A stretch of DNA of 64,000 bases, from NCBI GenBank assembly GCA_012520575.1, contig JAAYOB010000002.1, positions 5,264-69,263 on the forward strand. Reading direction: 5' to 3'. Made by a program: the position numbers and the translations under genes. How positions within the stretch are numbered: the first letter of the stretch is position 1; each line of letters begins with the position of its first letter. Source of the DNA: Candidatus Stramentimicrobium fermentans. GTDB lineage: Bacteria; Atribacterota; Phoenicimicrobiia; Phoenicimicrobiales; Stramentimicrobiaceae. The notes beneath the pieces are model-generated. The model made no database searches and had not been told where the DNA came from. It saw only the letters and a program-made list of their open reading frames with translations. This document shows positions 2,022 to 45,904 of the stretch, in pieces.

Positions 2022-2701
2022 ATAAGAACAAACAAGAATATATCGTTGCGGTAGCAGGGCAGCCAAATTCCGGTAAATCTACTGTCTTTAATATGTTAAC
2101 CGGAGCCAGGCAATTTGTAGCTAATTATCCCGGCGTTACGGTAGAGAAAAGGATTGGTATTTATTCTTATCAGGGGCAAAAGATCAAATTGGTTGATTTG
2201 CCCGGAACCTATAGCCTGACTTCATACAGTTTAGAAGAAAGAGTTGCCCGCAACTTTTTAATAAACGAAAACCCTGATCTGGTACTGAATATTGCCGATG
2301 CTTCCAATCTGGAACGCCATCTCGTCTTAACTGTCCAGCTTTTAGAGATGGGCATGCCCTTAGTCGTTGCTTTAAATATGATGGATATTTCCAAAGGTAG
2401 AGGATTTGAAATTGATGAAGAGAGCCTTGCTAAAGAACTTGGAGTGCCCGTTGTTCCGACTATTGCCCAAAAAGGAAGAGGGAAAGAAGAATTGCGGCAG
2501 GCTATTTTAAAAGGTTGCCTTGGCAAAGATAAGTACAAGAATAGTCTTGTAGTAGATTATGGTCAAAAAATAGAACAAATTTTAGATGAGTTGACACAGA
2601 ATATTGCTAATGATAATAGGTATTCTAATTATAATCCCCGCTGGCTGGCAATCAAACTATTAGCCGGTGATACGGAAGTAAGGAGTATGTTCCACCAATG
2701 A
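2018..2701 (+). CDS. Stand-alone FeoB N-terminal GTPase + GDI-helical domain protein (no membrane domain)
   Basis: G1 GQPNSGKST and G3 DLPG motifs, NMMD (G4), and a helical region ending ...RWLAIKLLAGD exactly where the membrane domain of full-length FeoB would begin. Stop at 2701. Confidence 0.75.
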   Translation: MNKNKQEYIVAVAGQPNSGKSTVFNMLTGARQFVANYPGVTVEKRIGIYSYQGQKIKLVDLPGTYSLTSYSLEERVARNFLINENPDLVLNIADASNLERHLVLTVQLLEMGMPLVVALNMMDISKGRGFEIDEESLAKELGVPVVPTIAQKGRGKEELRQAILKGCLGKDKYKNSLVVDYGQKIEQILDELTQNIANDNRYSNYNPRWLAIKLLAGDTEVRSMFHQ

Positions 2702-2726
2702 GGAATTAATGAAGGAGAAAATAGTT

Positions 2727-2873
2727 ATGGATAATATCATATTAATCATTGTTGGTCTGATAAGCGGGTACTATATTTATCGAAAATTATTTAAATGTAG
2801 CACCGGTAAAAACTTTTGTAAATCATGCGGGACGTGTAATGTCTGTCAGATATCAAAAACCAAAAAAAGATAG
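2727..2873 (+). CDS. FeoB-associated Cys-rich small membrane protein (48 aa)
   Basis: Not in the ORF track (too short). GAAGGAGAAA RBS, ATG 2727. One TM helix followed by CKSCGTCNVCQ, typical of the small proteins found after feoB in Firmicutes. Confidence 0.5.
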   Translation: MDNIILIIVGLISGYYIYRKLFKCSTGKNFCKSCGTCNVCQISKTKKR

Positions 2874-3104
2874 AGTTTGTTTTATTTTTACTGGATATAT
2901 TCTTTAAAAGTGATGATAGAATTATAATCCGTTCTTTATGGTCTTTTTGTATTATTTTTCCTATGGAATATTTTAATGAATAAAGAAATAAATAATATTG
3001 AAGAGAATTCGGCAATATCTTTTTCATTTATTTTTCACCTTTAAAGACAAGCCGTTCATAAAGTGTAAAAATACTTCTATCCATTTTTTTAGAAAAGAGA
3101 TCAA

Positions 3105-4443: not shown

Positions 4444-5316
4444 TTAGTTAGTCATCATGCATTGAGCCAGGTTTTTGGCAAATTCCTCTTCATCCGTTTT
4501 TAACAAGTCAATAACCTGGGGGTAACAATCTGAAATTTTATTTAAATCACCTACAAAATAGGCATTTACCAGATTATTCCAGATAGAGGTCATCTTAATT
4601 TTTGCTATTCCGTCATTAACTAAAGCCAAGATACCCTTCGGGTCGCCTTTTGGGGCGAAACAGACATACTCCTCTTCGGTATTGATGGTGCCTACTATTT
4701 TGATGGGGTTGACTTTGGTAAAGGCTTCCGCTGCGGGAGTATCAGCCACAAATACGTCAATTCGTTTATTTACCAGGTCTATAATCCCCAGATCATTCGT
4801 TTCGTAAAGTTCCAATGATTTAATATTGGCTCCCTCTTGCACCAAGTTATCTTCCAGCCAGTCTGCTTGGGTGGTGCCCCTTTGAGCGCCGACAGTATAT
4901 CCACCGATTAAAGCTGTGGCTATGTTCAGGTCCGAGTCTTCTCGAACCATTACTCCCTGGTTACCGGACCAGTAAGAGCTTGACGCATCTGCTACTGCCA
5001 ACCTCTCTTCCGTAAGAGACATACCGGCAACGAGTAGATCGACTTTACCTGACTGCAGGGCCGGAATAAGAGAATCAAAACCGATATCGAGTATTTCCAG
5101 CTCAAATCCTTGAATTTTAGCAATAATTTTCATTAAATCCATGTCAAATCCCACAAAATTGTTGTTGGCATCTACCCATTCAAAGGGCGGCCAGTCAGCC
5201 GAAGTGCCTACTACAACCTTAGCCGGTGCAGCCGAAGAAATAAGTGCCGCAGACACCATTACCATTGCAAAAATAAATAAGAGACTAACTGTTTTTTTAA
5301 TTACTTTGGTAATCAT
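4444..5316 (-). CDS. Polar amino-acid ABC transporter substrate-binding protein (family 3 SBP)
   Basis: Signal/lipo-type N-terminus. Typical SBP_bac_3 layout. Last gene of a four-gene ABC operon. Confidence 0.75.
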   Translation of the reverse strand: MITKVIKKTVSLLFIFAMVMVSAALISSAAPAKVVVGTSADWPPFEWVDANNNFVGFDMDLMKIIAKIQGFELEILDIGFDSLIPALQSGKVDLLVAGMSLTEERLAVADASSSYWSGNQGVMVREDSDLNIATALIGGYTVGAQRGTTQADWLEDNLVQEGANIKSLELYETNDLGIIDLVNKRIDVFVADTPAAEAFTKVNPIKIVGTINTEEEYVCFAPKGDPKGILALVNDGIAKIKMTSIWNNLVNAYFVGDLNKISDCYPQVIDLLKTDEEEFAKNLAQCMMTN

Positions 5317-5402
5317 ATATTTTATATCCTCCTTAAAATTTATTATAAATTACCCAGTAAATTGTTTAGAAAACGGTAGTTATCTCACCCCCTTCTCGCC
5401 TG

Positions 5403-6059
5403 CTATAAGCCGGGTATGCGAAATTTACTCTCCATCAGGTCTAAAAATTTAGAAAGTATTAAGACTACAACAAGATAAATTACCGTAATAACAATAAAAA
5501 CCTCAAAGGTTCTAAAGTTGCGAGAGGAAATTAATCTGCCCTGGGAAATAATTTCCGGAGCCTGAATCATATAAGCCATAGAGGTATATTTGAGCAGATA
5601 GATGAGCTCATTGGACCAGGAAGGGATTACCAGACGGAGCATTTGAGGCAGGACCACATATCTTATGGCTTGAACCTGTTTCATTCCAAGTGAATAAGCT
5701 GCTATCAACTGCTCTTCTTTAACCGACTGAATGGCTCCTCTAAAATACTCTGCCTGATATGCGGCACTGTTTAGACCCATACCAATCACAGCTGCGGTAA
5801 ACGGTGAAAGCATCACGCCTACACTGGGCAAGCCGAAATAAAGGATAAAGAGCTGGGTCAAAAGGGGGGTACCGCGGAAAATCTCCACAAAAAAAGTACA
5901 AAAAATATAAATTAGCTTAGAGCCATATACCCTGCCAAGGGCAATTGGGATACCCAGTAAAGCTCCCATAGTGATAGCAATAATGGTAAGCTCTAAAGTG
6001 ACTACCATGCCTTCTAACAATTTTGGCAAAATACTCCAGGCTAATTCCGGAAAGCTCAC
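5403..6059 (-). CDS. Amino-acid ABC transporter permease
   Basis: His/Glu/Gln/Arg/opine permease family pattern with an EAA-like loop. Overlaps the ATPase gene by 4 nt. Confidence 0.8.
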
Positions 6060-9171: not shown

Positions 9172-10614
9172 ATGAAGGAAACCGGATTTGTAAAAGAGAT
9201 TGCCTCTCAAGAAGAGGCCTTTTCTCAATGGTATATCGATGTAGTAAAAAAAGCCGATTTAGCGGATTACACCTCAGTAAAAGGCTGTATGGTAATTAAA
9301 CCGTACGGATATGGTCTGTGGGAAAATATGCAGCATTGCCTGGACCGGAGAATTAAAGCCACCGGTCATAAGAATGCCTATTTCCCTCTCTTTATCCCGG
9401 AAAGCCTCTTAAAAAAAGAGGCAGAACATGTAGAAGGATTTGCACCTGAGGTAGCTTGGGTCACCCATGGCGGTAGTGAAAAATTGGAAGAGCGATTGGC
9501 AGTCAGGCCAACATCTGAAGCAATCATTGGCAGTCTTTATTCTAAATGGATTAAGTCCTGGCGTGATTTGCCTGTGCTAATCAATCAGTGGGCCAATATC
9601 GTACGTTGGGAAAAGGTAACTCGCCCTTTCCTAAGAACAACGGAATTTTTATGGCAGGAAGGTCATACCGCCCATAAAAACCGGGAAGAGGCCGAGGAGG
9701 AAACTTTAAAAATATTGAACGTATATAAAGATTACATAGAAACTGATCTTGCTATTCCCGTCATTATCGGGCGGAAGAGCGACAATGAGAAATTTGCCGG
9801 CGCCATGCACACCTATACCCTGGAGGCTTTAATGGGTGATGGCAAGATTCTGCAGGCAGGAACCTCTCACAATCTGGGTCAGAATTTTGCTCAAGCCTTT
9901 GATATTCGTTTTCTGGATGAAAATCAACAGGAACAGTATGTCTGGACCACCTCCTGGGGAACCTCCACCAGACTGGTTGGTGCTATAATTATGGTACATG
10001 GAGATGAGAGAGGTTTAAAATTGCCCCCTCAAGTTGCCCCGACCCAAATAGTCCTGGTTCCTATTTTCTTCGATAAATCAAAAAAGGAAGTAATGGAAAA
10101 AACTCGAGAATACAAGAGATTGCTGGAAGAGAAATTTAGAGTGGAATTGGATGACCGCGACAGTTATACACCCGGCTGGAAGTTTAACGAATGGGAGATG
10201 AAGGGGGTTCCGGTGCGGTTAGAAATCGGGCCACGTGACTTAGCTGAGAAACAGGTTACCGCAGTGAGAAGGGATAAGGGGAATAAGATAGCTATACCGG
10301 AAAACGAATTAGTTCCTGCTTTAGAAAAATGGCTGAATGATATTCAAAATAATCTATATATACAAGCCCGGACTCGTTTAGAGGAGAATATTCGGTTTAC
10401 GGAAAACTATGAAGAATTTAAGGAGATAATAAAAGAAAAACTTGGCTTTATAAAGGCATATTGGTGCGGAGATGAGCTATGCGAAAATCAGATTAAAGCA
10501 GAGACCAAAGCCACAATTCGCTGTATTTCCTTAGAAGAACAGCAAGGAAAGGGTAAGTGTATTTTTTGCGGTAAGGAATCTACTACTCAGGTTTATTTCG
10601 GCAGGGCTTATTAG
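9172..10614 (+). CDS. proS: Proline--tRNA ligase, archaeal/eukaryote-like type
   Basis: Class II aaRS motifs. 480 aa. C-terminal Zn-binding tail CIFCGKESTTQVYFGRAY, typical of the archaeal-type ProRS that lacks the bacterial INS editing domain. Confidence 0.85.
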   Translation: MKETGFVKEIASQEEAFSQWYIDVVKKADLADYTSVKGCMVIKPYGYGLWENMQHCLDRRIKATGHKNAYFPLFIPESLLKKEAEHVEGFAPEVAWVTHGGSEKLEERLAVRPTSEAIIGSLYSKWIKSWRDLPVLINQWANIVRWEKVTRPFLRTTEFLWQEGHTAHKNREEAEEETLKILNVYKDYIETDLAIPVIIGRKSDNEKFAGAMHTYTLEALMGDGKILQAGTSHNLGQNFAQAFDIRFLDENQQEQYVWTTSWGTSTRLVGAIIMVHGDERGLKLPPQVAPTQIVLVPIFFDKSKKEVMEKTREYKRLLEEKFRVELDDRDSYTPGWKFNEWEMKGVPVRLEIGPRDLAEKQVTAVRRDKGNKIAIPENELVPALEKWLNDIQNNLYIQARTRLEENIRFTENYEEFKEIIKEKLGFIKAYWCGDELCENQIKAETKATIRCISLEEQQGKGKCIFCGKESTTQVYFGRAY

Positions 10615-10705: not shown

Positions 10706-10963
10706 ATGGAAAAGTTTTTAATTGGTCATGTGGTAAGTTACTTTGCTAAGATTGGTGTAGCGGCAATTGAAATTGAATCAGGAGAAATCAAAGTAGGAGA
10801 CACTCTCTATTTTAGCGGACATACTACTGATTTTGAACAGCAGATTGAATCTATACAGATTGACCGTAATCCTGTGGAATCTGCTCAAGCCGGTGACTCT
10901 GTCGGTATAAAAGTAAAAGATAGAGTTAGAGATGGAGACGAAGTATACAAAGTAACCGACTGA
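10706..10963 (+). CDS. Small beta-barrel protein resembling translation-factor domain 2 (EF-Tu_D2-like)
   Basis: 85 aa. GxxxxG/VGD...G.V pattern of EF-Tu domain-2 barrels. Good RBS AAGGAGG. Confidence 0.35.
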   Translation: MEKFLIGHVVSYFAKIGVAAIEIESGEIKVGDTLYFSGHTTDFEQQIESIQIDRNPVESAQAGDSVGIKVKDRVRDGDEVYKVTD

Positions 10964-11038
10964 GCAAGTGGTACTAAGTTAACATGCTCTTTTATAAAAT
11001 AGCCTTGTTTGAATAAGAATAAAATATAGTGTGAAGAA

Positions 11039-11069
11039 TAATCAGGGGGAAAGTCCCTGATTATTTTAT
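11039..11069 (+). terminator. Rho-independent terminator
   Basis: TAATCAGGG-ggaaagt-CCCTGATTA hairpin followed by TTTTAT. Confidence 0.45.
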
Positions 11070-11284: not shown

Positions 11285-12397
11285 ATGATTAGTTTGGAGC
11301 TGAGCTACCATGATTTAATCATACCGGGTGATTGGACGCCAATGTTCAGAAAAATCCAGAACCAAAATGGAGTAATAATGGTCTTGGGTAAATCTGATTC
11401 CGGAAAAACTAGCCTAATTAAATTACTTGCCGCATATCTGGTGAGGAGAAATAGGAAAATAGCCCTGATAGATTTAGACATAGGGCAATCTATTTTAGGA
11501 TTACCCGGTACTATGGGAATAGGTATTGTAAACCGGTCAAATTTAAAGAATGGCTTGGTTCAGGTAAATCACAGGTCCTTTTTCGGAGCCACTTCTCCGG
11601 CGAAAGGTATAGATAGATTTCTGGAGAAAGCCTATCGATTATATACCGTTGCTCATAAAGAGAATGCAGATGTATTCTTAATTGATACTACCGGACTGGT
11701 AATGGGTAGTTTGGGAGCATATCTGAAGGGTAATCTAATAAAGCGAATTAATCCGACGGCCTTAATAGCCCTCCAATTCGAGCAGGAATTAGAGCCAATT
11801 CTAACAGAATGTGAAATCCTTCCTGCTCTTAAGATTTACCGTGTAAAACCATATCAAAGAATTATCAGGAAAAATTGGACGGAAAGGAAAACCAGAAGGA
11901 AAAAGCAATTTGAGCTTTATTTTCAAGATGCACAATTGCGGGATCTTGATTTTTCAGCGATACCTATAAGGGATTTTAATTTTGATTTTGATTTCGGCAG
12001 CAAGAGCAGCAGAGCAGCACAAATTTTCCGGCAATTTCAACGGGAGATTATTTCAACAAAGATAGTAGAAAAAAGGACTCTAATGGTTTTATCGCCTGAA
12101 CCGCAGTATAATCCTGACAAGGAATTGCTAAGCAAAATAAAAGATTATTTTAAAGTAGAGCATATAGTTATAATCTTTCCGGAGTGGTTCCAAAATCTGT
12201 TAATATCTCTTACTGACACCGAAGGGCTGAGTAATGGATTAGGAATAATAGGAAATATTGATTTTAAGAAGAAGATAATGACTACTTATTTACCAATATC
12301 TGTTTCGTCAAAAGCCTTAGCTCAAATAGAGTTAGGCATGTTCAGAATTAGACTTGACGGCACGGAGTTGCCCTATCTTGAGCCGGAACAATATTAG
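11285..12397 (+). CDS. Clp1/Grc3/Nol9-family P-loop polynucleotide kinase homologue
   Basis: Walker A GKSDSGKTS. The Clp1-family signature LIDLDIGQS (compare LDLDPGQ in Grc3/Clp1). Walker B-like FLIDTTG. ~370 aa. Confidence 0.5.
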   Translation: MISLELSYHDLIIPGDWTPMFRKIQNQNGVIMVLGKSDSGKTSLIKLLAAYLVRRNRKIALIDLDIGQSILGLPGTMGIGIVNRSNLKNGLVQVNHRSFFGATSPAKGIDRFLEKAYRLYTVAHKENADVFLIDTTGLVMGSLGAYLKGNLIKRINPTALIALQFEQELEPILTECEILPALKIYRVKPYQRIIRKNWTERKTRRKKQFELYFQDAQLRDLDFSAIPIRDFNFDFDFGSKSSRAAQIFRQFQREIISTKIVEKRTLMVLSPEPQYNPDKELLSKIKDYFKVEHIVIIFPEWFQNLLISLTDTEGLSNGLGIIGNIDFKKKIMTTYLPISVSSKALAQIELGMFRIRLDGTELPYLEPEQY

Positions 12398-12437: not shown

Positions 12438-13337
12438 ATGAATAGAAAAGAGAAAGAAGGGGTGCTGCTGGTAATCCTTTGTGTATTGATGCATGGTGCT
12501 CACCCTATTTTGGGCAAGTATGGTGTCTCTTTAGTGCAACCTCTATTTTTTGCCAGTGTCACCAATCTTATTGCCGCAGTGAGTTTAATTTTGATTATCT
12601 TGTTTAAAAAAGAGTCACTTCTGCTCTTAATAGATAAGAGATACTTTCTTTCCCTTCTGTCTATCGGATTTTTTGGAACCACCCTCTCCAGTATTGTCTT
12701 TTTTTATGGTGTGAGATTAACCAGTGGAATAAATTCGGCAATTTTATTGCAGGCAGAACCGGTCTATTCTCTTGTTATCGGATATCTGCTATTGCAAGAA
12801 AAAGTAACCACCAGACAGATAATTTCTACTATAGTAATTATTATAGGAACCGTACTGGTTATTTATCAGGGAACCTCTCGTCTGAATTGGGGCGATATTT
12901 TAGTTTTATTAACCCCTCTCTGCTACCAAGTGGGACATTATTTTAGCAAAAGATTGCTAAATCAGACCGAAATAAGCCCTCTTTTTATAGCTGCCGGAAG
13001 AACCTTCTATGGCGGGGTGTTCTTATTTATATTAAACCGGTTAGCCGGAACAGGTGACTTTAAGATACTTACTCAACCCAATATTTTTGCTATTTTTATC
13101 TTTTACGGAACTGTAGTATATGCCTTAACCTATTTAACATTCTATGCCGCTATAAAACGCATCAATCTTTCTAAAGCCAGTGCCATTATCTCCATTTATC
13201 CCGCTATATCAATCGTGTTGGCTAATGTAATTTTAAAAGAAGTACCTGATGTTTATCAGTCAAGTGGATTTTTAATTGTATTGGCCGGTGTATTCTATCT
13301 CTCCAATCTCAAAAGCGAATTACGAAAAGATCGTTAA
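12438..13337 (+). CDS. EamA/DMT-family transporter
   Basis: Ten-TM duplicated EamA topology. AAAAGGAGAAG RBS before ATG 12438; the track's upstream extension overlaps the previous gene and was not used. Confidence 0.7.
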   Translation: MNRKEKEGVLLVILCVLMHGAHPILGKYGVSLVQPLFFASVTNLIAAVSLILIILFKKESLLLLIDKRYFLSLLSIGFFGTTLSSIVFFYGVRLTSGINSAILLQAEPVYSLVIGYLLLQEKVTTRQIISTIVIIIGTVLVIYQGTSRLNWGDILVLLTPLCYQVGHYFSKRLLNQTEISPLFIAAGRTFYGGVFLFILNRLAGTGDFKILTQPNIFAIFIFYGTVVYALTYLTFYAAIKRINLSKASAIISIYPAISIVLANVILKEVPDVYQSSGFLIVLAGVFYLSNLKSELRKDR

Positions 13338-15014: not shown

Positions 15015-15818
15015 TTAAATTAATATCTTACTAAAAGTTGAATAAAATTCTGTTTCTTTCTCTATTACGGTGATATCCTGTTTACGGGCAATTCCCTTCT
15101 GTTCCTCTGTACAATACCCCCAGCCGGCTAAAAAGACCTGCACTCCTAACTCCTTTGATTCCTCCAGATAATTAAGCTGATCATCGATAAAACAGATATT
15201 ATTAAAATCGGTCCGGTACTGTGCTGCTATGGCTCTCATATGGTCGGATTTACTCCGGCCGTAGTTTTTATCGAATATATCCTCTATTGGCAGTACAAAT
15301 CCTAAATAATCCTGATGGAAGGCCGGATGAATAGCAGTACCCAAATTAGAAGTAGCAATGACTACTTTCACTCCCTCTTGTAATAGCCGTTTTATTCCGG
15401 TTGTGACCCCTTTATAGGCAGGGGATAGGGCAAACCATTTCGTAAAATCTTTCTTTTGCCAGATCTCTTTCTCCTGAAAAAATAGTTCGTGAAAGATTTC
15501 GTAGTCTAAATCCAGTTCACTGCGGATTTTTCTAAACTCTTGTTGGTCACGTACCGGTATTTCTTCTTCTATAATCTTAATCATGACCAGAAAATCACAG
15601 GAATACTCCACATAGGCACGCAACCGTTGGTATTTCTCCATCTCCCGGTGGTATTCCTTCTTCTTACGCTCCCAATTGTCAAAGGTGAAAATCTCCCCAC
15701 CAAAATTCTTTTTCACCTCAGAGCCAAAATAACGGCAATAGGCATTGTGGGCGGTGAATAATGATTTTAAAGCACTATCACTGATTACCCCATCATAATC
15801 AACAGCTAATATCTTCAT
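15015..15818 (-). CDS. HAD-superfamily hydrolase (copy 1 of tandem cupin+HAD cassette)
   Basis: DYDGV motif I (LAVDYDGVISDS). Capped HAD architecture. Paralogous to 16297-17118. Confidence 0.65.
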   Translation of the reverse strand: MKILAVDYDGVISDSALKSLFTAHNAYCRYFGSEVKKNFGGEIFTFDNWERKKKEYHREMEKYQRLRAYVEYSCDFLVMIKIIEEEIPVRDQQEFRKIRSELDLDYEIFHELFFQEKEIWQKKDFTKWFALSPAYKGVTTGIKRLLQEGVKVVIATSNLGTAIHPAFHQDYLGFVLPIEDIFDKNYGRSKSDHMRAIAAQYRTDFNNICFIDDQLNYLEESKELGVQVFLAGWGYCTEEQKGIARKQDITVIEKETEFYSTFSKILI

Positions 15819-15909
15819 TGAGACCCTCTGCTATCATAAAATTTATTCTGCTATCTTACCTATAATTTTAATTGATTTGTGAACCATAGTCTAGTTGGCA
15901 GACGAACGA

Positions 15910-16248
15910 TTATTTATAAGGTATCAGGCATAGAAACCTTAACAATTCCTCTCCCGTGTTTTTAAACCCGTGCTCCAGCCCCGGCTCCACAAAGACCACA
16001 CTGTCTTTTTTAATAGGATAGCTTTTGCCCTCTATCTTGACTTCTCCCTCGCCTTCCAGTACGAATACTTCATGTTCCCAATCATGGGCATGGTAGGGAA
16101 TGTGACCCTCGGCGTCAATTTCAAACATCCTCATAGCAAAATTTTCGGCATCATCCTTATCGGAAATAAGCCATCTCACTTTCGCACCTTTGGTATCTTC
16201 CATTGCCATATCTTCTAAAGGCACTTCCTGATAAGCAGCTACTTTCAT
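15910..16248 (-). CDS. Cupin-domain protein (copy 1)
   Basis: Cupin_2 His motifs HAHDWEHEVFVLEGEG...GLEH. 112 aa. Confidence 0.6.
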   Translation of the reverse strand: MKVAAYQEVPLEDMAMEDTKGAKVRWLISDKDDAENFAMRMFEIDAEGHIPYHAHDWEHEVFVLEGEGEVKIEGKSYPIKKDSVVFVEPGLEHGFKNTGEELLRFLCLIPYK

Positions 16249-16296
16249 CCGCTGATTCCTCCTTTTTCACTTCAAATAATTATTCTTTCACACTTA

Positions 16297-17118
16297 TCAC
16301 GCATGATTTTCAGCTTTATTCATATATCTCTTGATAGTTGGATAGAAATCCGCTGTTTTTTCTATAACCGGGATGTTCTGCTTATTTGCCTTTCTCTTTT
16401 GCTGGGAAGTTGCATAGCTCCAACCGGCGAGCAAGACATTGATTCCTAAAGGACGAGTCTGCACCAGATGCGCCAGCTGGTCATCAACAAAGTAAATCTC
16501 TGCAAATTTAGCCCCATAAAAACTGTTCATATACTTAATCTGATTGGATTTATCTTCTCCAAAACTGATATCGAGTATATCCTCTTCTTTGATGGGAATA
16601 TTATAGTATTGCGGAAGAAAAGCCCGGGCAATGGTGTCACGGAGATTAGAGGTAGCTACCGCCACTTTTACCCCTTCTTGCACAAATTTTTTAATCCCCC
16701 CTACTATTTCCGGATAAGCGGGCTCCAGAGCCAACCATTTTTGAAAACTAATCTCCTGTAATCTCTTTCTCTCTCTATAAAATAGTTCGTAAAACTTATC
16801 AAATTCAAATTTAACCGTATTGCGGTATTGGTCAAATTCTACCTGAGTAGAGATATAATTTTTTTCTTCGAGCAGTTTTTGTATCAAGCCATAGTCGGTA
16901 GCCGCTCTGATATAAGGCCTTAGAGAGCGATAATGGGCAATATCTCGGGCATATTTCTTTTGAATATCAGCCCAGTTTTGAAAAGTAAACTTTTCTCCGC
17001 CAAATACTTTGCTATTGTTGTTACCTATCAACTGCAAATAGGCATTATGGCTGACAAAGAGGGCATCCATTTCACTATCTACAATTACCCCGTCATAATC
17101 AAGTGCCAATACTTTCAT
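16297..17118 (-). CDS. HAD-superfamily hydrolase (copy 2)
   Basis: LALDYDGVIVDS motif I. Collinear similarity to 15015-15818 along the whole length. Confidence 0.65.
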   Translation of the reverse strand: MKVLALDYDGVIVDSEMDALFVSHNAYLQLIGNNNSKVFGGEKFTFQNWADIQKKYARDIAHYRSLRPYIRAATDYGLIQKLLEEKNYISTQVEFDQYRNTVKFEFDKFYELFYRERKRLQEISFQKWLALEPAYPEIVGGIKKFVQEGVKVAVATSNLRDTIARAFLPQYYNIPIKEEDILDISFGEDKSNQIKYMNSFYGAKFAEIYFVDDQLAHLVQTRPLGINVLLAGWSYATSQQKRKANKQNIPVIEKTADFYPTIKRYMNKAENHA

Positions 17119-17152
17119 CTAATTTCCCTTTTTACTACTATTGTGCCGCTAA

Positions 17153-17491
17153 TCAGGACAAAAAATCTTCTCTGACGGGATAGAAAATGTCAATTATCTG
17201 AGCACCTTCTACCAGAGCATGTACCTCATGGGTCATATTAGAAGGAATAATAGCCCCTTCGCCTGCTTTTAAGACTTGTTCTTTACAGCCGACAATCATT
17301 TTTACAGAACCTTTGAGGACATAACAGATCTGCTCATGCGGATGTTCATGTTCCGGCATAATAGTATCTTCGGAACCAAAATCAAACAAGCTCATCATGA
17401 CATGGTTATGGGCTACTGCCCTAATCTGGGAGTTTTTTAATACCGGTTTTACCTTTAATTCATCTTTTTTAAAAAATTTTACTTCTTCCAT
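17153..17491 (-). CDS. Cupin-domain protein (copy 2)
   Basis: HEHPHEQICYVLKGS...THEV cupin motifs. 112 aa. Confidence 0.6.
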   Translation of the reverse strand: MEEVKFFKKDELKVKPVLKNSQIRAVAHNHVMMSLFDFGSEDTIMPEHEHPHEQICYVLKGSVKMIVGCKEQVLKAGEGAIIPSNMTHEVHALVEGAQIIDIFYPVREDFLS

Positions 17492-17568: not shown

Positions 17569-18090
17569 TTAAGAACAGCCGAAAACTTGCTCTACTGCCT
17601 CCTGCTGAAAGGGGAAGGCCAGGGGAGGCATATCTGCAATATTAAAATATTCAGCCCTTTCTGCATCATCACCGGCACGCAACTCCCCACCAATAATGCC
17701 CGCCTCATAGGTGATAATAATTACATGGCCATATAAATCACTCTCATGGTTAAAAATTTTAATAAAATTGTTTACAATGCCCTTTAAACCGGTCTCCTCC
17801 TCCAATTCTCTCAATGCCGCCTGAATAGCTGATTCTCCATTATTAATAAATCCACCCGGTAAAGACCATTTTCCTTTCCCCGGCTCTGATTTTCTCTTTA
17901 CCAATACTATGCGGTCATTCCCATCACTAACCACCACTGCTACACTGGGGAGGGGATTATCATAATAGGTAGTCTGACAATTTTCGCAATACTTCCGAAC
18001 CTTGCCCTCTTCTTCCATTTGGGTCAACAGGCTGCCGCATTTGGTGCAATACTTTATATTAATCTGTTTCATCCGATTCTCCTCTATCAA
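17569..18090 (-). CDS. NUDIX hydrolase with N-terminal zinc ribbon
   Basis: Nudix box GGFINNGESAIQAALRELEEETGL. N-terminal CTKCGS...CENCQ. Confidence 0.75.
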   Translation of the reverse strand: MIEENRMKQINIKYCTKCGSLLTQMEEEGKVRKYCENCQTTYYDNPLPSVAVVVSDGNDRIVLVKRKSEPGKGKWSLPGGFINNGESAIQAALRELEEETGLKGIVNNFIKIFNHESDLYGHVIIITYEAGIIGGELRAGDDAERAEYFNIADMPPLAFPFQQEAVEQVFGCS

Positions 18091-18125
18091 TATTTTTACT
18101 TTGTGGGCTACTTATTTTTACAATT

Positions 18126-18833
18126 TCAAATCTGCCCCATCTGGGCGAAGCTATAAAAGCATTTTTCTCCTATTATAATATGGTCCAGCACCTTTACCCC
18201 TAACATGGCACAGGACTGACACAATCTTTTAGTCAATTCCAGGTCTTGCGGACTGGGGTTGGGGTCACCACTGGGATGGTTGTGTAAAAAGACAATGGCT
18301 GCGGCTGATTCTTTAATAACCTCTTTCATCACCTCGCGGGGATGGACGGTGGTCTCATTCAGGCTACCCATAGAAATAAGTACATCACGGATAATCTGGT
18401 ATCTAATATCAAGCAGTAAAATATGAAATACCTCTTTTTTCTTGTCTTTCATTTTGCTATAGTAGTAATCAACTATATCCTGGGCTTTTTGTATTCTCGT
18501 TCCCGGTAAGACCTTCTCCCTTGATAATCTGACTGCCACCTCTAAAGCCGCCCTTATCTGGGCATATTTGGCTTGTCCTATACCTTTTATTTCTTTTATT
18601 TCGGCAAAAGAAGCCGTTGCTAAATTCCTGAGGCTGCCGAATTGGGCCAGCAAATCCCGAGCCACTTCCAATGCAGTCTTACCGGAATGGCCCTTGTTAA
18701 TTATAAGAGCTAATAACTCGGCATCAGTCAAAAATTGAGGACCATGCTGCAATAATCTCTCACGAGGACGTTCGTATTCCGGCCAATCCTTGATGGTATA
18801 ATTCTTTTTTCCTTTTCTATATTCTATGGTCAC
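18126..18833 (-). CDS. radC: RadC-like JAB/JAMM domain protein
   Basis: HhH N-terminal region. JAMM motif HNHPSGDPNPSPQD. Confidence 0.8.
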   Translation of the reverse strand: MTIEYRKGKKNYTIKDWPEYERPRERLLQHGPQFLTDAELLALIINKGHSGKTALEVARDLLAQFGSLRNLATASFAEIKEIKGIGQAKYAQIRAALEVAVRLSREKVLPGTRIQKAQDIVDYYYSKMKDKKKEVFHILLLDIRYQIIRDVLISMGSLNETTVHPREVMKEVIKESAAAIVFLHNHPSGDPNPSPQDLELTKRLCQSCAMLGVKVLDHIIIGEKCFYSFAQMGQI

Positions 18834-18848
18834 TTCTTACTCACTTCA

Positions 18849-20141
18849 CTACCCTTCAGAACAAGAAAATCCTTCCCTTTGTTTTTTCCTTTTTATACGG
18901 GCTAAGCGATGATCTAAATCCTTTCGCCACTCTGTTTTCACGCTCCCGGAAATGTTTTCCCGGTTTAACCTATGTAAAGCCTCTTCAACAATACTTTCAG
19001 CCTGACCATAGTCCTTCTTTTGGTGTTCATAATATTTTGCCAATTCTTCATAGGGATAGGGCGAAAAATCTCTACTTAAAGAGATAATATCACGCCAGGC
19101 GGCCTCTGCTTTGTCCCATTTTAATTGCTTCTTATAGGCAAAGGCACACAATCTTAAGGTTTCCACTGCCTCTTCATCAGAGAGGTCGCATTTTAAGGCT
19201 TCCTCATAACATTTGCTGCTATATTGAAAATCCCTATGTCCTTCAAATATTTTACCGATGCTGCATAAGTCTAATGCTGACTTTACCATCTCTAAGGGAT
19301 CTTCTAATACCTGACCAATCCTGGTAGCGAGAAGCACCAGGGAAATAATGTCCTGCTGATTGTGGGCAAATACCGGTTTAAGGGGCCGGGCATCTTTATC
19401 CAGCAGATAGCGAAAATAGACTTGGGGAATAAGATAACCGGGTATATCTCCGTTTCTCCTAATTTTCAAAACTTCCTTCTCAATATTTTGCAGGGTGCAG
19501 TCCTGTAGCCTCCTCTTCCATAGTCTGCGAGTGGGGAAGAGTAAATCAAGATGGTGAGAGGTATTCAAGTGAAAGGGCTGCCGCGTCATAATGTAGCGGG
19601 TCTGCAATAGAGGGAAATCATAACTTTTCCCATTATAAGTAACCAATATCTTAAAGCCCTGACCAAAAAGCTGGTTAACCCCCCATAAGAGGGCTTCCTC
19701 TTCATGGTAGTCCGACATAAAATATTGTCTGATATGGAACTCTTCGCCTCTAAAAAAGCCGAGGCCCAATAAAAAAATATACGTGCCGGAACCTCCCGCC
19801 AATCCGGTCGTTTCGGTATCAAAAAAGAGCATCTCTTCTAATTTGAACTCTTCGCCTCTCCTATTAAATTGCGGCAACCAAAGATGCAATCCGGGGGTAA
19901 AATAGCGTTGTATGTCGGATAAGGAGTTTTCACCAAAAGAGGTATCCGGGGTAATGATTCTTTCCGCATAGAAACAATTGCCATGCGGTGTCTCAATGGT
20001 ATTTCCGGGTACAATTTCCGAGACAGATGACTTATTGTTACTTTTTTTAGAAAAAGTATTTTTCTGATTACGGTTATTGCTGATTTGCTGTACTTTTTTC
20101 TTCAGACTCTCAATCTGCTCCAGTCGGTCACGTAAGTTCAT
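18849..20141 (-). CDS. RNase H-like (DEDD-type) exonuclease with C-terminal TPR region, YprB/MrfB-like
   Basis: FFDTETTGL DEDD motif. TPR-like C-terminus. Sits directly downstream of, and 2 nt from, the YprA-type helicase, as in the B. subtilis yprA-yprB (mrfAB) pair. Confidence 0.55.
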   Translation of the reverse strand: MNLRDRLEQIESLKKKVQQISNNRNQKNTFSKKSNNKSSVSEIVPGNTIETPHGNCFYAERIITPDTSFGENSLSDIQRYFTPGLHLWLPQFNRRGEEFKLEEMLFFDTETTGLAGGSGTYIFLLGLGFFRGEEFHIRQYFMSDYHEEEALLWGVNQLFGQGFKILVTYNGKSYDFPLLQTRYIMTRQPFHLNTSHHLDLLFPTRRLWKRRLQDCTLQNIEKEVLKIRRNGDIPGYLIPQVYFRYLLDKDARPLKPVFAHNQQDIISLVLLATRIGQVLEDPLEMVKSALDLCSIGKIFEGHRDFQYSSKCYEEALKCDLSDEEAVETLRLCAFAYKKQLKWDKAEAAWRDIISLSRDFSPYPYEELAKYYEHQKKDYGQAESIVEEALHRLNRENISGSVKTEWRKDLDHRLARIKRKKQREGFSCSEG

Positions 20142-20143
20142 AA

Positions 20144-22432
20144 TTAACGAATGGCCTCCTTCAGAATGAAGAGTGCACTCTGCTTCCCCTGTTTCCCAAC
20201 CTGATTAATGGGTCCCACACAGGAAGGACATCCTTCATCGCAGCCGCAATTTTCGATCAAATTACGAGCTGCCGCTAAGATTTTAGAGCGTAACTCAAAA
20301 ATTTTCTCACTAAAACCAACCCCTCCCGGGTAATTATCATAGATAAAGAGTGTGGGTAAATCGGTAAAAGGAGAGCGAACTTGGGCCACTGCTTTAATAT
20401 CATTGGGATCACACATTACAAATAAGGGGGCTACATTGACCAGAACATTGGAGAGAGCTAATAAGCCCCCTGCCAGGTCAAAGGCAGCACCGGGGGCAAT
20501 TTTTCCACCCACTAGCTGGGGAAAGGTTTCCGCTAAAATAAGCCAATAGGCAGTAGTATGCATATCCTCTGCCGGTAAATTAATCTTGCCATAACCCAAA
20601 TTTTCATGGGTATAGAATTTTACCTTTTTATACATAGTGGAGAGGGTAGTAATAGCTATCTCACCATGCTGATGGTAAACATTTTCTTCCTCATGCAGAT
20701 TAAAGACATCCATAACTTTAATATCACTCTCTACCTGGGCATCGGTATAATAATTGACCTCCACCTTCTTGGCATAAGCCTTATAATCATCATAATCAAG
20801 TTTGGTAATGGTGTATTGTTCACCCTCATGTATATAGATAGCCCCTTCAAATATGGTAGTGTGGACGCTTTCTCGGTCAACCTCTCCGATAACCTTGTCC
20901 ATTCCCTCCTCTACATCGATAATGGTAAAGTTATCCGGGGAAGCACTGCGCAGACTGATTTCATCAGCCGGATAGGCATCGCTCATCCAGTGCCATTTAT
21001 TTCGTGAGAAATGAAGAATTCCTTTATCCTCTAGGAATTGCAGTATCTCTTCCAGCTCTTCTGTACCAAATTTTTCCTCCGGGATAAAGGGGAGTTCAAA
21101 GGCGGCACATTTGATATGACTGATTAAAATACTCAAATTGTCAGGGTCAATAACGGCACTCTCCGGGGTCTCCTTAAAAAAGTAATCAGGGGAATTGATA
21201 ATATACTGGTCTAAGGGGATACTGGAGGCAACCAATATAGCCACTGAGGAGTGGGAACGCCGACCGGCGCGACCTGCCTGCTGCCAGGTACTGGTAATGG
21301 TACCCGGATAGCCGGCAATGAAGCAGGCATCCAATTGTCCTATATCTACCCCTAATTCTAAGGCATTGGTGCTGACCACACCCTTGATATGGCCCTCTTT
21401 AAGCCCTTTTTCAATCTCACGCCTCAGATTGGGCAGATAACCGCCCCGATACCCTCTTACTAAGTCGCGGTCTTGTCCCAATTTTTCAAAATAATCTTTC
21501 AGATAACTGGTCAAAAGCTCGGTGGCCAGACGGCTGCGGGCAAAAACGATAGTCTGTATATCGTGATTTAGAAATTTACTGACCAGGCGCGATGTTTCTT
21601 TAATCAAGCTTTTCCTTATACCGAGTTCTCTGTTGATTACCGGTGGATTATAAAAGAGAAAATATTTTTCTCCGCTGGGCGCCCCATTGTTATTAATCAG
21701 GGTAAATTTTTCTCCGGTAATTCTTTCCGCCAACTCCTGAGGATTGGCGATAGTGGCTGAACAGCAGATAAACTGCGGCTTAGAACCATAAAATTCACAG
21801 ATTCGTTTTAAACGGCGCAATACATTAGCCATGTGGCTGCCGAACACACCACGATAGATATGTATCTCATCTATGACAATATATTTCAAATTTTGAAACA
21901 ATCTATGCCACTTAGTATGGTGGGGCAATATACCGGTATGCAGCATATCAGGATTAGTGACAATGATGTTCCCCTGATTACGGATAGCCGAACGAGCTGA
22001 TACCGGGGTATCTCCGTCATAGGTGTGGGTACCGATAGATTTATCCAGGGCTTCTACCAACCGATATAGTTCTCTCAGTTGGTCCTGAGCCAGAGCTTTA
22101 GTGGGAAAAAGATAGATTGCCCGGCTCTCCGGCTCTCTGATAACCCTATTCAATACCGGCAAATTATAGCAAAGTGTTTTACCGGAAGCAGTAGGGGTAA
22201 CCACCACCGCATTTTGCCCCTCTTGGATAGCATTTAAGGCACTCACTTGATGTGAATAGAGCCTGGTTATGCCATCCTCTTTTAAACGGTTAATCAGTTC
22301 CGGCTTCAGCCAGCCCGGGTAATCGGCTAACTTGGCTTCCTGTGCCGGCAGATACTCCAGCGCAGTCAGGTATGGACGGATAGTATAATCCTGTTCCAGT
22401 TCCTGAATGATGGATTTAACATCACATTTCAT
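20144..22432 (-). CDS. DEAD/DEAH-box helicase with C-terminal DUF1998 Zn domain, YprA/MrfA-like
   Basis: Walker A TPTASGKT, DEAH box VIDEIH, helicase C motifs QQAGRAGR. C-terminal four-Cys cluster CGCDEGCPSCVGP. Confidence 0.7.
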   Translation of the reverse strand: MKCDVKSIIQELEQDYTIRPYLTALEYLPAQEAKLADYPGWLKPELINRLKEDGITRLYSHQVSALNAIQEGQNAVVVTPTASGKTLCYNLPVLNRVIREPESRAIYLFPTKALAQDQLRELYRLVEALDKSIGTHTYDGDTPVSARSAIRNQGNIIVTNPDMLHTGILPHHTKWHRLFQNLKYIVIDEIHIYRGVFGSHMANVLRRLKRICEFYGSKPQFICCSATIANPQELAERITGEKFTLINNNGAPSGEKYFLFYNPPVINRELGIRKSLIKETSRLVSKFLNHDIQTIVFARSRLATELLTSYLKDYFEKLGQDRDLVRGYRGGYLPNLRREIEKGLKEGHIKGVVSTNALELGVDIGQLDACFIAGYPGTITSTWQQAGRAGRRSHSSVAILVASSIPLDQYIINSPDYFFKETPESAVIDPDNLSILISHIKCAAFELPFIPEEKFGTEELEEILQFLEDKGILHFSRNKWHWMSDAYPADEISLRSASPDNFTIIDVEEGMDKVIGEVDRESVHTTIFEGAIYIHEGEQYTITKLDYDDYKAYAKKVEVNYYTDAQVESDIKVMDVFNLHEEENVYHQHGEIAITTLSTMYKKVKFYTHENLGYGKINLPAEDMHTTAYWLILAETFPQLVGGKIAPGAAFDLAGGLLALSNVLVNVAPLFVMCDPNDIKAVAQVRSPFTDLPTLFIYDNYPGGVGFSEKIFELRSKILAAARNLIENCGCDEGCPSCVGPINQVGKQGKQSALFILKEAIR

Positions 22433-27420: not shown

Positions 27421-27744
27421 CTATGGTTTATCAATAAATTTACTTGAATTTATTTTTATAATGATGTTTTCTATTAAATTTTGTCCAATTTCCTGGTTTA
27501 ATATATTGATAATTTCACCTTTTCTAATAACTATTTCGCTTGCCCAGATATGGTTTTTAACCATTAAAAAAAGATTATTATTCTGAATTTTCAGTGGTTT
27601 GGTATTTAGGGCAATTTCAGGAGGAAGAATATCTTCCCAAGAATCAAAAAAATTGTAACCATCGACTCTCTGTGTCCAATTGCGCGATTTAAAAAATGAT
27701 TGGACAATCTCATTGATATGTCTTGGTTCCTTACTCTCCATCAT
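27421..27744 (-). CDS. DUF721-domain protein (DciA/RemB-like) downstream of recF
   Basis: 107 aa. The pattern W..I..P.I...T.P..I.N..L.V.V..S.WA.E......EI...LN matches DUF721. Overlaps the recF stop by 14 nt. Same position as Rv0004/dciA and B. subtilis yaaB. Confidence 0.55.
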   Translation of the reverse strand: MMESKEPRHINEIVQSFFKSRNWTQRVDGYNFFDSWEDILPPEIALNTKPLKIQNNNLFLMVKNHIWASEIVIRKGEIINILNQEIGQNLIENIIIKINSSKFIDKP

Positions 27745-28882
27745 TCTGCATTGTCCCGTCCTTTATTCGGAATATTTTTGAGGAGGAATTAATATTATAT
27801 TGTGTCAAGTCTTCTATATCTATACTGGTAATAAAAGTTTGCAGAGGCCTTTCTTTGATTATTTTCATTAAAAATAATCTTCTTTCTGAATCAAGCTCTG
27901 ATAAGACATCATCTAGCAGCAAGGGGGGGTACTCACGGTCTTTCTCCTTCAATAGTTCCAATTCGGCCATTTTCAGAGCTAACACTGCGGTGCGCTGCTG
28001 CCCCTGGGAACCATAAATACCTAAATCCACTAAATTGTTCATAATAAAGTAATCATCTCGATGGGGACCGACAGTGGTTACTTTAAGTCTTAAATCTTGT
28101 TCTTTGGCCTGGCTGAGTTTCTGTTCAAAAATATTTCCTATCTCCTCATTATCTTCTGAAAAAGATGTTAAAATATTACTGTTATATTTTAGTTTTAAAA
28201 CTTCCTGGTTTTTAGTCATCAATTGATGTATGATTTTAACTTTTTGATTCATTATTTGTAAGGTTTTCACCCTATACCGGATAATCATGCTTCCTATTTC
28301 TACTATTTTCTGGTCCCAGACAGTTAAGTGTTGCTCTAAATTGCTTTTACTTTCTATGCTCTTTAACAACATATTTCTCTGGAATAGTACGCGGCTATAG
28401 TCCCTTAGGTAGCGTTCATAGATAGGATTAAGATTAATAATCACCTCATCCAAAAATTTTCTTCTAACAGAGGGAGAGCTTTTAATGATTTGCAGGTCTT
28501 CTGGTGTAAATATTACCGGGGTGAATCTTTTGGTGAGCCAGGATTTTTGCCGGTATTTTTTATTTACTTTGATAATTTTTTTGGCTTTTTTAGGCAGGGA
28601 ATTTATCCGGTCAATGTCTTGGAGTAGAATATTAATTTGAAATTTTTCTTTATTTTTACTTACTTCCCCTAAAATATAACTTTCTTTTTCAGACCAGTTT
28701 ATTAAATTGGAATCCTCTTTGGCTCGGTAACTATTTCCTCTTAGTAAGGTATAAATCGATTCAATAACATTTGTTTTACCTTGGGCATTATCGCCTATGA
28801 AAATGTTTAAGGAGCTATGAAAATTAAAAGAAGCATCTTTAAAATTTCTAAAATTAATTAATCTAATCTTATCAACATTCAA
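27731..28882 (-). CDS. recF: DNA replication and repair protein RecF
   Basis: N-terminal Walker A GDNAQGKTN. SMC-like signature and Walker B near the C-terminus. dnaA-dnaN-recF synteny. Confidence 0.85.
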   Translation of the reverse strand: MNVDKIRLINFRNFKDASFNFHSSLNIFIGDNAQGKTNVIESIYTLLRGNSYRAKEDSNLINWSEKESYILGEVSKNKEKFQINILLQDIDRINSLPKKAKKIIKVNKKYRQKSWLTKRFTPVIFTPEDLQIIKSSPSVRRKFLDEVIINLNPIYERYLRDYSRVLFQRNMLLKSIESKSNLEQHLTVWDQKIVEIGSMIIRYRVKTLQIMNQKVKIIHQLMTKNQEVLKLKYNSNILTSFSEDNEEIGNIFEQKLSQAKEQDLRLKVTTVGPHRDDYFIMNNLVDLGIYGSQGQQRTAVLALKMAELELLKEKDREYPPLLLDDVLSELDSERRLFLMKIIKERPLQTFITSIDIEDLTQYNINSSSKIFRIKDGTMQNDGE

Positions 28883-28944
28883 ATAATTTTTCCTTCCTGT
28901 ATTATCCTCACCTACGCCCTTATAGGAGTGTTGTCCTCACTGGA

Positions 28945-30117: not shown

Positions 30118-30463
30118 TTTTTTTCTCCCATTCTTTATAGTTTGCTTAATATTTTTGAAATATATTAAATATAAGAATAAGTAGTATTAGTAGTAATAAT
30201 GTTAATAAAGTGAATAAATATTTTAATCTCATCTAATTTAACAGTTAAATATGTGGATATTATTCTTAATAATTATATCTTTTATTAACAATATTCACAT
30301 AACCATATTTATTATTATATTAATTTATTTACTTAAAAAACGAAGAAATTATTAATAAGTGTTATATTATAATATTGAAGGTATATTTCAAATTACAAAT
30401 TATTTTCTTACCCATTAAAAAGATATTAATAATTATTCATTATGAGCAAAATATATTTATTGT
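30118..30463. promoter_or_regulatory. AT-rich dnaA-dnaN intergenic region with DnaA-box-like sites (possible oriC half / DUE)
   Basis: More than 80% AT. Contains TGTGGATAT and ATATTCACA (one mismatch each to TGTGGATAA/TTATCCACA). Confidence 0.4.
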
Positions 30464-32452: not shown

Positions 32453-32593
32453 ATGAAGCGTACTTATCAGCCCAGTACCAGAAAGAGACTGAAGACACAC
32501 GGATTTCGTAAACGTATGAGTACTAAAAGCGGAAGACTTATCTTGAAAAGAAGAAGACAAAAAGGAAGGAAGAGATTAACCGTTTCCGGTTAG
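32453..32593 (+). CDS. rpmH: 50S ribosomal protein L34
   Basis: [46 protein letters not shown], 46 aa. Not in the ORF track because of its length. Confidence 0.9.
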
Positions 32594-32595
32594 AT

Positions 32596-45903: not shown

Positions 45904-45904
45904 T

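Follow-up and report, generated by a model that had tools for sequence, protein, structure and literature searches.

A probable Clp1 family polynucleotide 5'-hydroxyl kinase gene paired with eamA in an Atribacterota genome

Here we analyse a stretch of 64,000 nucleotides from contig JAAYOB010000002.1 of Candidatus Stramentimicrobium fermentans (referred to below as the window), and in particular the clp1-like gene located on its plus strand at positions 11285..12397. The gene consists of a single open reading frame that starts with ATG and encodes a protein of 370 amino acids, predicted to be a prokaryotic-type polynucleotide 5'-hydroxyl (5'-OH) kinase of the Clp1 family. The host is represented by a metagenome-assembled genome (MAG) of the Atribacterota, and we take it to be bacterial because the database entry that is 100% identical at the protein level is named 'MAG: hypothetical protein GX240_00145 [Candidatus Atribacteria bacterium]'. 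We consider it probable that the gene encodes a prokaryotic-type Clp1 5'-OH kinase with an architecture like that of the Pyrococcus enzymes, and that it is a long-standing Atribacterota gene which is paired with eamA and is not tied to proS.

The clp1 locus and its surroundings

Upstream of clp1 lies proS (9172-10614, plus strand), encoding a family-I prolyl-tRNA synthetase (ProRS; TIGR00408 proS_fam_I, 619.8 bits against a cut-off of 437; ProRS-C_1, PF09180, E 1e-24). It is followed on the same strand by a gene for an 85-amino-acid barrel protein of the EF-Tu domain 2 type (10706-10963; GTP_EFTU_D2, 38 bits against a cut-off of 30.3). A preliminary description of the window had already recognised these neighbours as an archaeal-like ProRS and a small translation-factor-like barrel, which agrees with the TIGR00408 and GTP_EFTU_D2 matches. 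The best PDB match of the stand-alone barrel protein is to residues 239-295 of aEF1-alpha (E 4e-4). Downstream, at a distance of 40 nucleotides, clp1 is followed by eamA (12438..13337, plus strand), which encodes a transporter of the drug/metabolite transporter (DMT) family (Pfam EamA, E 5e-44). The other genes around clp1 encode a patatin, an aminotransferase, a haloacid dehalogenase (HAD) and a cupin.

From this arrangement the preliminary description had derived the idea of an RNA repair or processing module, possibly acquired horizontally, in which clp1 would belong together with proS and the barrel gene. All three genes share one strand, and OP9-type Atribacterota loci keep the order of proS, the barrel gene and, further on, clp1, which would fit a module recently acquired from archaea. 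However, several features of the locus argue against it. Firstly, the 321-nucleotide gap that separates the stop of the barrel gene at 10963 from clp1 contains a stable terminator-like hairpin (11035..11067, plus strand) with a 14-bp stem and a folding free energy of -17.8 kcal/mol (z -4.4; 0 of 200 shuffled sequences were as stable), and a terminator scan concurs. Secondly, all five OP9-type species in our sample (the window, L005/L011, L007/L012, L013 and L014, where L numbers designate related loci) share the order proS, barrel gene, clp1, eamA, but in three of them (L005/L011, L013 and L014) a Band7/NfeD gene pair on the opposite strand intervenes between the barrel gene and clp1. The barrel gene, on the other hand, directly follows proS in all seven OP9-type loci examined, which come from five species; this suggests that its product is a conserved partner of proS, and the two genes probably form a transcription unit separate from that of clp1. 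Thirdly, family-I ProRS is the normal housekeeping enzyme of many bacteria, and its presence is therefore uninformative on gene transfer.

The composition and position of clp1 do not set it apart from the rest of the chromosome either. Its G+C content (GC) is 0.376, with 0.356 at third codon positions (GC3), against 0.375 for the window, whose typical codon usage it shares. The genes recF, dnaN and dnaA lie at 27.7-31.8 kb on the minus strand and yidC, jag, mnmE, parA and parB at 33.3-39.2 kb on the plus strand, and the cumulative GC skew has its minimum at 30-32 kb. The position of dnaA and dnaN, together with this minimum, places clp1 within the core chromosome and at a distance of about 20 kb from the origin. 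The whole replication-origin region extends over positions 27731-39170, with jag/KhpB included, and its dnaN/dnaA part is AT-rich (GC 0.31-0.35).

In contrast to the loose association with proS, the link with eamA is conserved. eamA directly follows clp1 in the window and in L005, L007, L013, L014 and L038, that is, in all Atribacterota loci sampled; the spacing is 26-40 nucleotides in the OP9-type loci and about 485 nucleotides in L038, which is JS1-like. The search that retrieved the related loci relied on two peptide patterns and so undercounts them; JS1-type loci were missed, and possibly also those of Atribacter and Caldatribacterium. Comparison of the window with L038, where eamA lies at 2127-3038, gives an identity of 53% for EamA and 30% for Clp1, so that Clp1 is the faster-evolving member of the pair. 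Taken together, the synteny, the hairpin and gap, the native composition and the near-origin position support the view that clp1 has long resided in the Atribacterota, apparently by vertical inheritance, and that it forms a conserved unit with eamA rather than a module with proS and the barrel gene.

Possible functional partners were sought around the gene as well. Within about 10 kb on either side of clp1 there is no gene for a Las1-like HEPN nuclease, near the gene there is no RNA ligase, RtcB, Hen1 or Las1-like gene and no phosphatase or nuclease partner, and the annotated genes around it include no TSEN- or Pcf11-like partner. Searches of the whole window with Rfam (at gathering thresholds) and ARAGORN did not return a single RNA gene; the kinase gene accordingly has neither an intron-containing tRNA nor a ribozyme beside it.

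Family membership, motifs and domain layout

The preliminary description had assigned the protein to the Clp1/Grc3/Nol9 polynucleotide kinase family and had named a search with the CLP1_P hidden Markov model (PF16575) as a check. That search gave an E-value of 2.2e-35 and a score of 122.7 bits, the gathering cut-off being 26.6, and in Pfam the match runs from amino acid 35 to 214, covering positions 1-187 of the 188 in the model; the contrary outcome, a best match to another P-loop family such as MobB/ArgK with no Clp1 motifs, did not occur. Other Pfam families, CbiA, SRP54 and MobB among them, match only a P-loop stretch of about 40 residues, with E-values of 4e-6 to 1e-3. No NCBIfam model scored above its cut-off for the window protein, all matches being at the level of the P-loop, and the defence-system search with PADLOC returned mad8 at 21 bits only, consistent with generic P-loop similarity.

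Comparisons with solved structures point in the same direction. At the sequence level human CLP1 (E 2.6e-10), Caenorhabditis elegans Clp1 (E 6.6e-7) and yeast Grc3 (E 1e-3) match best, the alignment with the last of these spanning residues 10-340 of the query, and a profile built from 150 homologues matched residues 121-327 of human CLP1, the lid segment included, with an E-value of 8.3e-30. An AlphaFold2 model computed from 11 sequences reached a mean predicted local distance difference test score (pLDDT) of 80.7 and a predicted template modelling score (pTM) of 0.80. When this model was compared with the PDB using Foldseek, the top 23 matches were all Clp1, Grc3 or Nol9 structures (best E-value 2.1e-15, about 360 aligned columns), and SRP54 and FtsY came next at about 1e-4. 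The predicted structure thus has the Clp1-type fold, comprising the kinase domain and the C-terminal domain. Because the structure-sequence matches, the homologue profile and the model with its Foldseek matches agree, we regard the predicted fold-level assignment to Clp1/Grc3/Nol9 as secure, and the family assignment of the preliminary description is upheld at all three levels: sequence, profile and predicted fold.

The protein can be divided into three parts. The first is a segment of 34 residues (amino acids 1-34; 11285..11386, plus strand) with a conserved P14 and W17, which stands in the place of the N-terminal domain of about 100 amino acids found in eukaryotic Clp1. W17 is present in 124 of 157 bacterial-type relatives and in 32 of 34 archaeal or long-form ones. 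The P-loop begins at amino acid 35, compared with about amino acid 100 in the long archaeal forms, and the 34 residues that precede it do not amount to the N-terminal beta-sandwich domain of eukaryotic-type Clp1; judged by its predicted layout, the window protein is not a Clp1 of the eukaryotic type. The second part is the kinase domain defined by the Pfam envelope of CLP1_P (amino acids 35-214; 11387..11926, plus strand). The third is a C-terminal domain of 156 amino acids (215-370; 11927..12394, plus strand) which, according to hhalign, is homologous to the C-terminal domain of archaeal Clp1: residues 214-370 aligned together with 114 bacterial-type sequences matched an alignment of 32 archaeal or long-form C-terminal domains with a probability of 100% (E 9.7e-41, 151 columns). 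In agreement with this, phmmer paired residues 10-366 of the query with residues 71-424 of a protein that belongs to a Njordarchaeales cluster.

The three motifs reported in the preliminary description are present at the positions given there: GKSDSGKTS at amino acids 35-43 (nucleotides 11387-11413), IDLDIGQS at 62-69 (11468-11491) and IDTTG at 133-137 (11681-11695). According to Saito et al. 2019 (PMC6777427), the motifs of the family are Walker A (GxxxxGK[S/T]), Walker B ([D/E]hhQ), Clasp ([T/S/L]xGW) and Lid (RxxxxR). By these definitions the LDLDxGQ motif, seen here as IDLDIGQS, contains the true Walker B (D65-I-G-Q68), whereas IDTTG, which had been called Walker-B-like, belongs to the Clasp. 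Conservation was counted over 191 aligned homologues, of which 157 are bacterial-type and 34 archaeal or long-form. In the Walker A motif or P-loop, GKSDSGKT (G35...K41 T42; 11387..11410, plus strand), G35, G40 and K41 are invariant, as are D65, G67 and Q68 in the Walker B region, D63-L-D65-I-G67-Q68 (11471..11488, plus strand), which aligns to 'LDVGQ' of the human protein. The lid arginines R201 and R205 (RKTRR; 11885..11899, plus strand) lie opposite the human lid 'RRECR' in the profile alignment, with a spacing of RxxxR instead of the RxxxxR written in PMC6777427; R205 is invariant and R201 occurs in 190 of the 191 sequences. P105 and G137 complete the set of invariant residues.

The Clasp departs from its definition. 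It has the form T135-T-G137-L138 (11687..11698, plus strand), in which the threonine and the glycine are retained and a leucine occupies the usual position of the RNA-binding tryptophan (Trp). This is common among the bacterial-type relatives, where position 138 is Leu in 95, Phe in 24, Tyr in 16, Met in 14 and Trp in 4, so that 153 of the 157 have a residue other than Trp, while 28 of the 34 archaeal or long-form sequences have Trp. Since residues other than Trp dominate the bacterial-type relatives, and since the active Clp1 of Thermus scotoductus (Ts-Clp1) seems, tentatively, to have a Tyr there, the aligned sequences lead us to regard the clasp Trp as a residue characteristic of the eukaryotic and archaeal branches rather than one that defines the family. 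The Ts-Clp1 clasp segment, 'ADTDGY', could be read tentatively from a copy of Fig. S9 of PMC6777427 damaged in optical character recognition (OCR), in which bases were lost.

By alignment, then, the predicted catalytic residues K41, T42, D65, Q68, R201 and R205 are intact. This bears on whether the protein could be a non-catalytic, nucleoside triphosphate (NTP)-binding scaffold, like Clp1 of Saccharomyces cerevisiae, which keeps the fold but lacks kinase activity (PMC6777427). The C-terminal domain could indeed bind proteins; however, yeast Clp1 is inactive through mutations in its kinase domain, and the residues of the window protein that catalysis requires are all intact and are invariant or nearly so across the 191 homologues, which makes a scaffold role very unlikely.

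Relatives, neighbourhoods and inheritance

An exhaustive phmmer search against 1.84 billion representative proteins retrieved 1,941 at E <= 1e-3, of which 1,123 had E <= 1e-10. Atribacterota proteins that share 45-55% identity with the window protein carry the name 'Clp1/GlmU family protein' at NCBI or 'polynucleotide 5'-hydroxyl-kinase GRC3/NOL9' at JGI. A further cluster, with 30% identity to the window protein, comes from Atribacterota/Caldatribacteriota of marine sediment and is for that reason considered JS1-like, so that both sampled lineages of the Atribacterota, OP9-type and JS1-like, have orthologues, with identities of 30-55%. The best 150 of the 1,941 relatives fall into three size classes. 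Those of about 280-310 amino acids align with the kinase domain only; those of about 340-380 amino acids have a short N-terminus and align over their full length; and in those of about 420-440 amino acids the P-loop is found near residue 100 and the clasp reads TxGW. The long-class members that carry a label are from archaea (Njordarchaeales and Bathyarchaeia), and the labelled full-length members of the middle class include proteins from Armatimonadota, 'bacterium HR16', a Bacillota MAG, Poribacteria, Scalindua, KSB1 and Deferribacteres. Short-type matches were found in Thermodesulfovibrio, Actinomycetota, Vulcanimicrobiota and Anaerolineae.

These relatives allowed us to return to the archaeal origin that the preliminary description had proposed to test by phylogeny. 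In a midpoint-rooted neighbour-joining tree of 191 sequences (Kimura distances, 100 bootstraps), one clade of 153 tips contains every labelled bacterial sequence, Atribacterota included, and the other, of 38 tips, contains the complete sets of six labelled archaeal sequences and 28 proteins of more than 400 amino acids. The only robust clade is that of the OP9-type Atribacterota (100/100 bootstraps); labelled archaea separated from labelled bacteria in 43/100 bootstraps, or in 66/100 when one short Methanomicrobia sequence was left out, and distances to relatives outside the phylum are saturated (1.4-1.6). The tree thus gives no indication of a recent archaeal donor, and the clasp residue and the short N-terminus, which are the bacterial-type states, likewise show no sign of one. 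Because the deep nodes are poorly supported, the tree is also compatible with an archaeal origin as such. One relative of 371 amino acids (protein P0011, L009 8001-9116; 34% identity) has an N-terminal extension of about 70 amino acids, and its C-terminal region is truncated; it joins the Atribacterota clade with weak support (18/100) and is encoded among pyrimidine-biosynthesis genes and a gene for an Arf/Ras-like small GTPase.

With this, the recently acquired archaeal module can be assessed as a whole. In its favour, the Njordarchaeales cluster matches the window protein with an E-value of 2.7e-35, which is only slightly worse than the best bacterial-type matches outside the Atribacterota (E 1e-40 to 1e-36). 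However, the clasp Leu is of the bacterial type, and the point estimate of the tree places the Atribacterota apart from the archaeal and long-form clade. Added to the hairpin and gap, the NfeD/Band7 insertions, the native composition near oriC, the ordinary ProRS and the orthologues that keep clp1-eamA in both lineages, these observations make the module proposed in the preliminary description extremely improbable.

Comparison of the loci in Atribacterota, Actinomycetota, Poribacteria and others revealed no partner gene common across phyla. Three Actinomycetota loci, all from MAGs, have a gene for a NUDIX hydrolase immediately upstream, which overlaps the start of the short-type Clp1 gene (L022 5564-6019, L026 5562-6011 and L031 5564-6001), and it is possible that NUDIX and Clp1 form an operon there that remodels 5' ends. 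In Poribacteria (L016, L017, L019, L020, L027 and L042), a peptidase S49/NfeD1b_N gene lies directly upstream. Genes for this ClpP-like protease adjoin Clp1-like genes in three phyla (L016/L017/L019/L020/L027 at about 5095-5961; L042 4094-4960; L028 4471-5241; L005 5757-7921, and also L011, L013 and L014). Their orientation differs: in the Atribacterota NfeD and Band7 are divergent from clp1, in Poribacteria the protease gene directly precedes the Clp1-like gene and shares its strand, and one Actinomycetota MAG has the two genes in convergent orientation. The NfeD/Band7 pair is missing from the corresponding position in the window genome, and the adjacency of NfeD and clp1 could be due to chance or to an old linkage. 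NTP_transf_5 and PHP genes flank the gene of a 358-amino-acid relative (L041) that carries a Bacillota MAG name and has its closest named relatives in the Armatimonadota, and a His_Phos_1 gene lies downstream of the clp1-like gene in another locus.

Some other features of the window may be mentioned here. A two-gene unit encoding a HAD-like hydrolase (267 and 273 amino acids) and a 112-amino-acid cupin is duplicated in tandem at 15015-17491 (minus strand). At 44932-46849 (plus strand), a PfkB-family kinase gene is directly followed by an Indigoidine_A (pseudouridine-5'-phosphate glycosidase-like) gene, which is the usual pair for pseudouridine breakdown. Finally, a GmrSD-type (type IV restriction) protein of 843 amino acids with a C-terminal DUF4268 is encoded at 56499-59030 (plus strand), in a low-GC stretch from 56 to 64 kb (GC 0.30-0.33) that is possibly an island.

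Predicted activity and comparison with known systems

In the proposed reaction, K41 and T42 of the P-loop and D65 of Walker B, together with Q68, would bind NTP-Mg2+, the lid arginines R201 and R205 would stabilise the transition state, and single-stranded RNA would receive the gamma-phosphate at its 5'-OH end, as would DNA, though probably less well, by analogy with characterised relatives. The likeliest role in the cell would be to turn 5'-OH RNA ends, such as may arise from metal-independent ribonucleases, toxins, ribozymes or heat, into 5'-monophosphate (5'-P) ends, which could then be degraded by 5'-P-dependent nucleases or be ligated. This conversion for degradation or ligation is our best guess and is speculative. 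Four points weigh against the activity and role that we favour. Phosphorylation of 5'-OH ends has been shown only for Ts-Clp1, Pyrococcus horikoshii Clp1 (Ph-Clp1), human and C. elegans Clp1 (PMC6777427), none of which is close to the window protein. The clasp Trp, described as a residue of importance in binding RNA, is replaced by Leu, and substrate binding, or the substrate itself, could therefore differ. The cellular role is a guess because there is no ligase, RtcB, phosphatase or nuclease nearby and no common partner across phyla. Lastly, a role in RNA repair would leave the conserved pairing with a membrane transporter unaccounted for.

Two other substrates have to be considered. On the one hand, the protein might be mainly a DNA 5'-OH kinase acting in DNA repair. 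This would fit the missing RNA-stacking Trp and the phosphorylation of DNA by Ph-Clp1 and Ts-Clp1 at higher enzyme concentration (PMC6777427), and also two features of gene neighbourhoods, namely the uracil-DNA glycosylase gene found just downstream of the clp1-like gene in one Actinomycetota locus (L026) and a MrfA/MrfB-like repair pair 6-10 kb away in the window. However, the characterised prokaryotic Clp1 proteins favour RNA, the MrfAB-like genes are on the other strand with six unrelated genes between them and clp1, and there is no 3'-phosphatase or ligase partner nearby, so that we consider this unlikely. The MrfA/MrfB-like pair itself (17569-22432, minus strand) encodes a DEAD/Hrq1-type helicase with a MrfA Zn-binding domain and a PF13482 exonuclease of the RNase_H fold, and RadC and NUDIX genes come after it.

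On the other hand, the protein might be a P-loop kinase for a substrate other than a nucleic acid, working with the co-conserved EamA transporter. The phylum-wide persistence of the clp1-eamA pair and the absence of the clasp Trp are in line with this idea. Nevertheless, the link with EamA is found in the Atribacterota only and the neighbours differ in other phyla, Leu, Phe, Tyr or Met dominates the clasp of the entire bacterial-type class, the RNA-active Ts-Clp1 appears, on the tentative reading of the damaged OCR copy, to carry Tyr at this position, and the geometry of the lid and Walker B is that of polynucleotide kinases. We therefore regard such a function as highly improbable and retain the polynucleotide 5'-OH kinase reading.

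It is tempting to go one step further. Proteins of the short-N-terminus, Trp-less form occur in Atribacterota, Armatimonadota, Poribacteria, Planctomycetota, KSB1 and Deferribacteres, and it is conceivable, if on balance rather unlikely, that the combination of a short N-terminus, a kinase and C-terminal domain and a Trp-less clasp marks an old bacterial Clp1 lineage, instead of separate acquisitions from archaea here and there, with a dedicated role in the Atribacterota that is reflected in the clp1-eamA pair. One possibility for such a role is 5'-end surveillance of RNA. Archaea ligate 5'-OH ends directly by means of RtcB. If the idea were true, Clp1-type RNA 5'-kinases would predate the split between archaea and bacteria, and bacteria would hold an unstudied 5'-OH RNA pathway. 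The first cultured member of the phylum, Atribacter laminatus, has a membrane that apparently surrounds the nucleoid (PMC7736352); its description does not mention the Clp1 family, and our literature search found no paper linking Atribacterota and Clp1.

The preliminary description had called Clp1-type kinases uncharacterised in bacteria. This does not hold: Saito et al. 2019 (PMC6777427) catalogued bacterial Clp1 and showed that Ts-Clp1 is an RNA 5'-OH kinase, and NCBI and JGI annotate the family. The catalogue comprises 14 of 1,543 bacterial species, scattered across phyla, and in its Table S7 bacterial Clp1 proteins measure 233-374 amino acids, with forms of 362-374 amino acids among them; the authors considered both a transfer out of hyperthermophilic archaea and an ancient presence with subsequent loss, without deciding between the two. 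The only assayed bacterial member, Ts-Clp1 (E8PQM6, 240 amino acids), phosphorylates single-stranded and double-stranded RNA, and single-stranded DNA only at higher enzyme concentration, with a Km for ATP of 2.5 uM (PMC6777427). Ts-Clp1 and the window protein have in common the bacterial host, the CLP1_P kinase domain, a short N-terminus and a clasp without Trp (tentatively Tyr in Ts-Clp1). They differ in that Ts-Clp1 lacks both N- and C-terminal domains (PMC6777427), whereas the window protein has its C-terminal domain of 156 amino acids.

In reported architecture, the closest counterparts are the archaeal Ph-Clp1 (O57936, 361 amino acids) and Pyrococcus furiosus Pf-Clp1 (Q8U4H6, 354 amino acids), archaeal polynucleotide 5'-OH kinases according to Jain & Shuman 2009, as cited in PMC6777427. 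They belong to the same length class and likewise combine a short N-terminus with CLP1_P and a C-terminal domain; the window architecture matches theirs because it consists of a 34-residue N-terminal segment, the kinase and the conserved C-terminal domain, and the four-motif catalytic core is expected to be common to both. The window host, however, is bacterial, and the labelled archaeal sequences mostly carry the clasp Trp and often an N-terminal extension of about 70 amino acids, neither of which is found here. Eukaryotic Clp1 (human CLP1 and C. elegans CLPF-1) is more distant, with an identity of 14-18%; it has the clasp Trp and an N-terminal domain, which it needs for ATP binding and activity (PMC6777427), whereas the window protein has Leu and lacks that domain. 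The Grc3/Nol9 proteins, which process the internal transcribed spacer 2 (ITS2) of pre-rRNA and are partners of Las1, measure 600-700 amino acids and have N- and C-terminal regions of their own, compared with 370 amino acids here. T4 Pnk and Pnkp-Hen1 are analogous 5'-OH polynucleotide kinases that heal broken RNA ends in bacteria and phages; they belong to a different P-loop kinase family and usually come with a phosphatase, a ligase or Hen1, either as a fusion or from an accompanying gene. T4 Pnk is also mentioned separately in the account of how Clp1 family proteins were extracted (PMC6777427).

Thus, no new type of system is revealed and the link to proS does not hold; the window protein adds a member to a bacterial enzyme type that is already described and annotated. 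The value of the locus is that it offers a well-conserved and apparently vertically inherited example of a prokaryotic Clp1 in a poorly studied phylum. In addition, many bacterial members have kept a C-terminal domain of the archaeal type, and at the RNA-stacking clasp position they depart from the archaeal forms sampled. These two points refine the picture of 2019, according to which the archaeal C-terminal domain is absent from bacterial Clp1, and they suggest concrete mutants and substrates.

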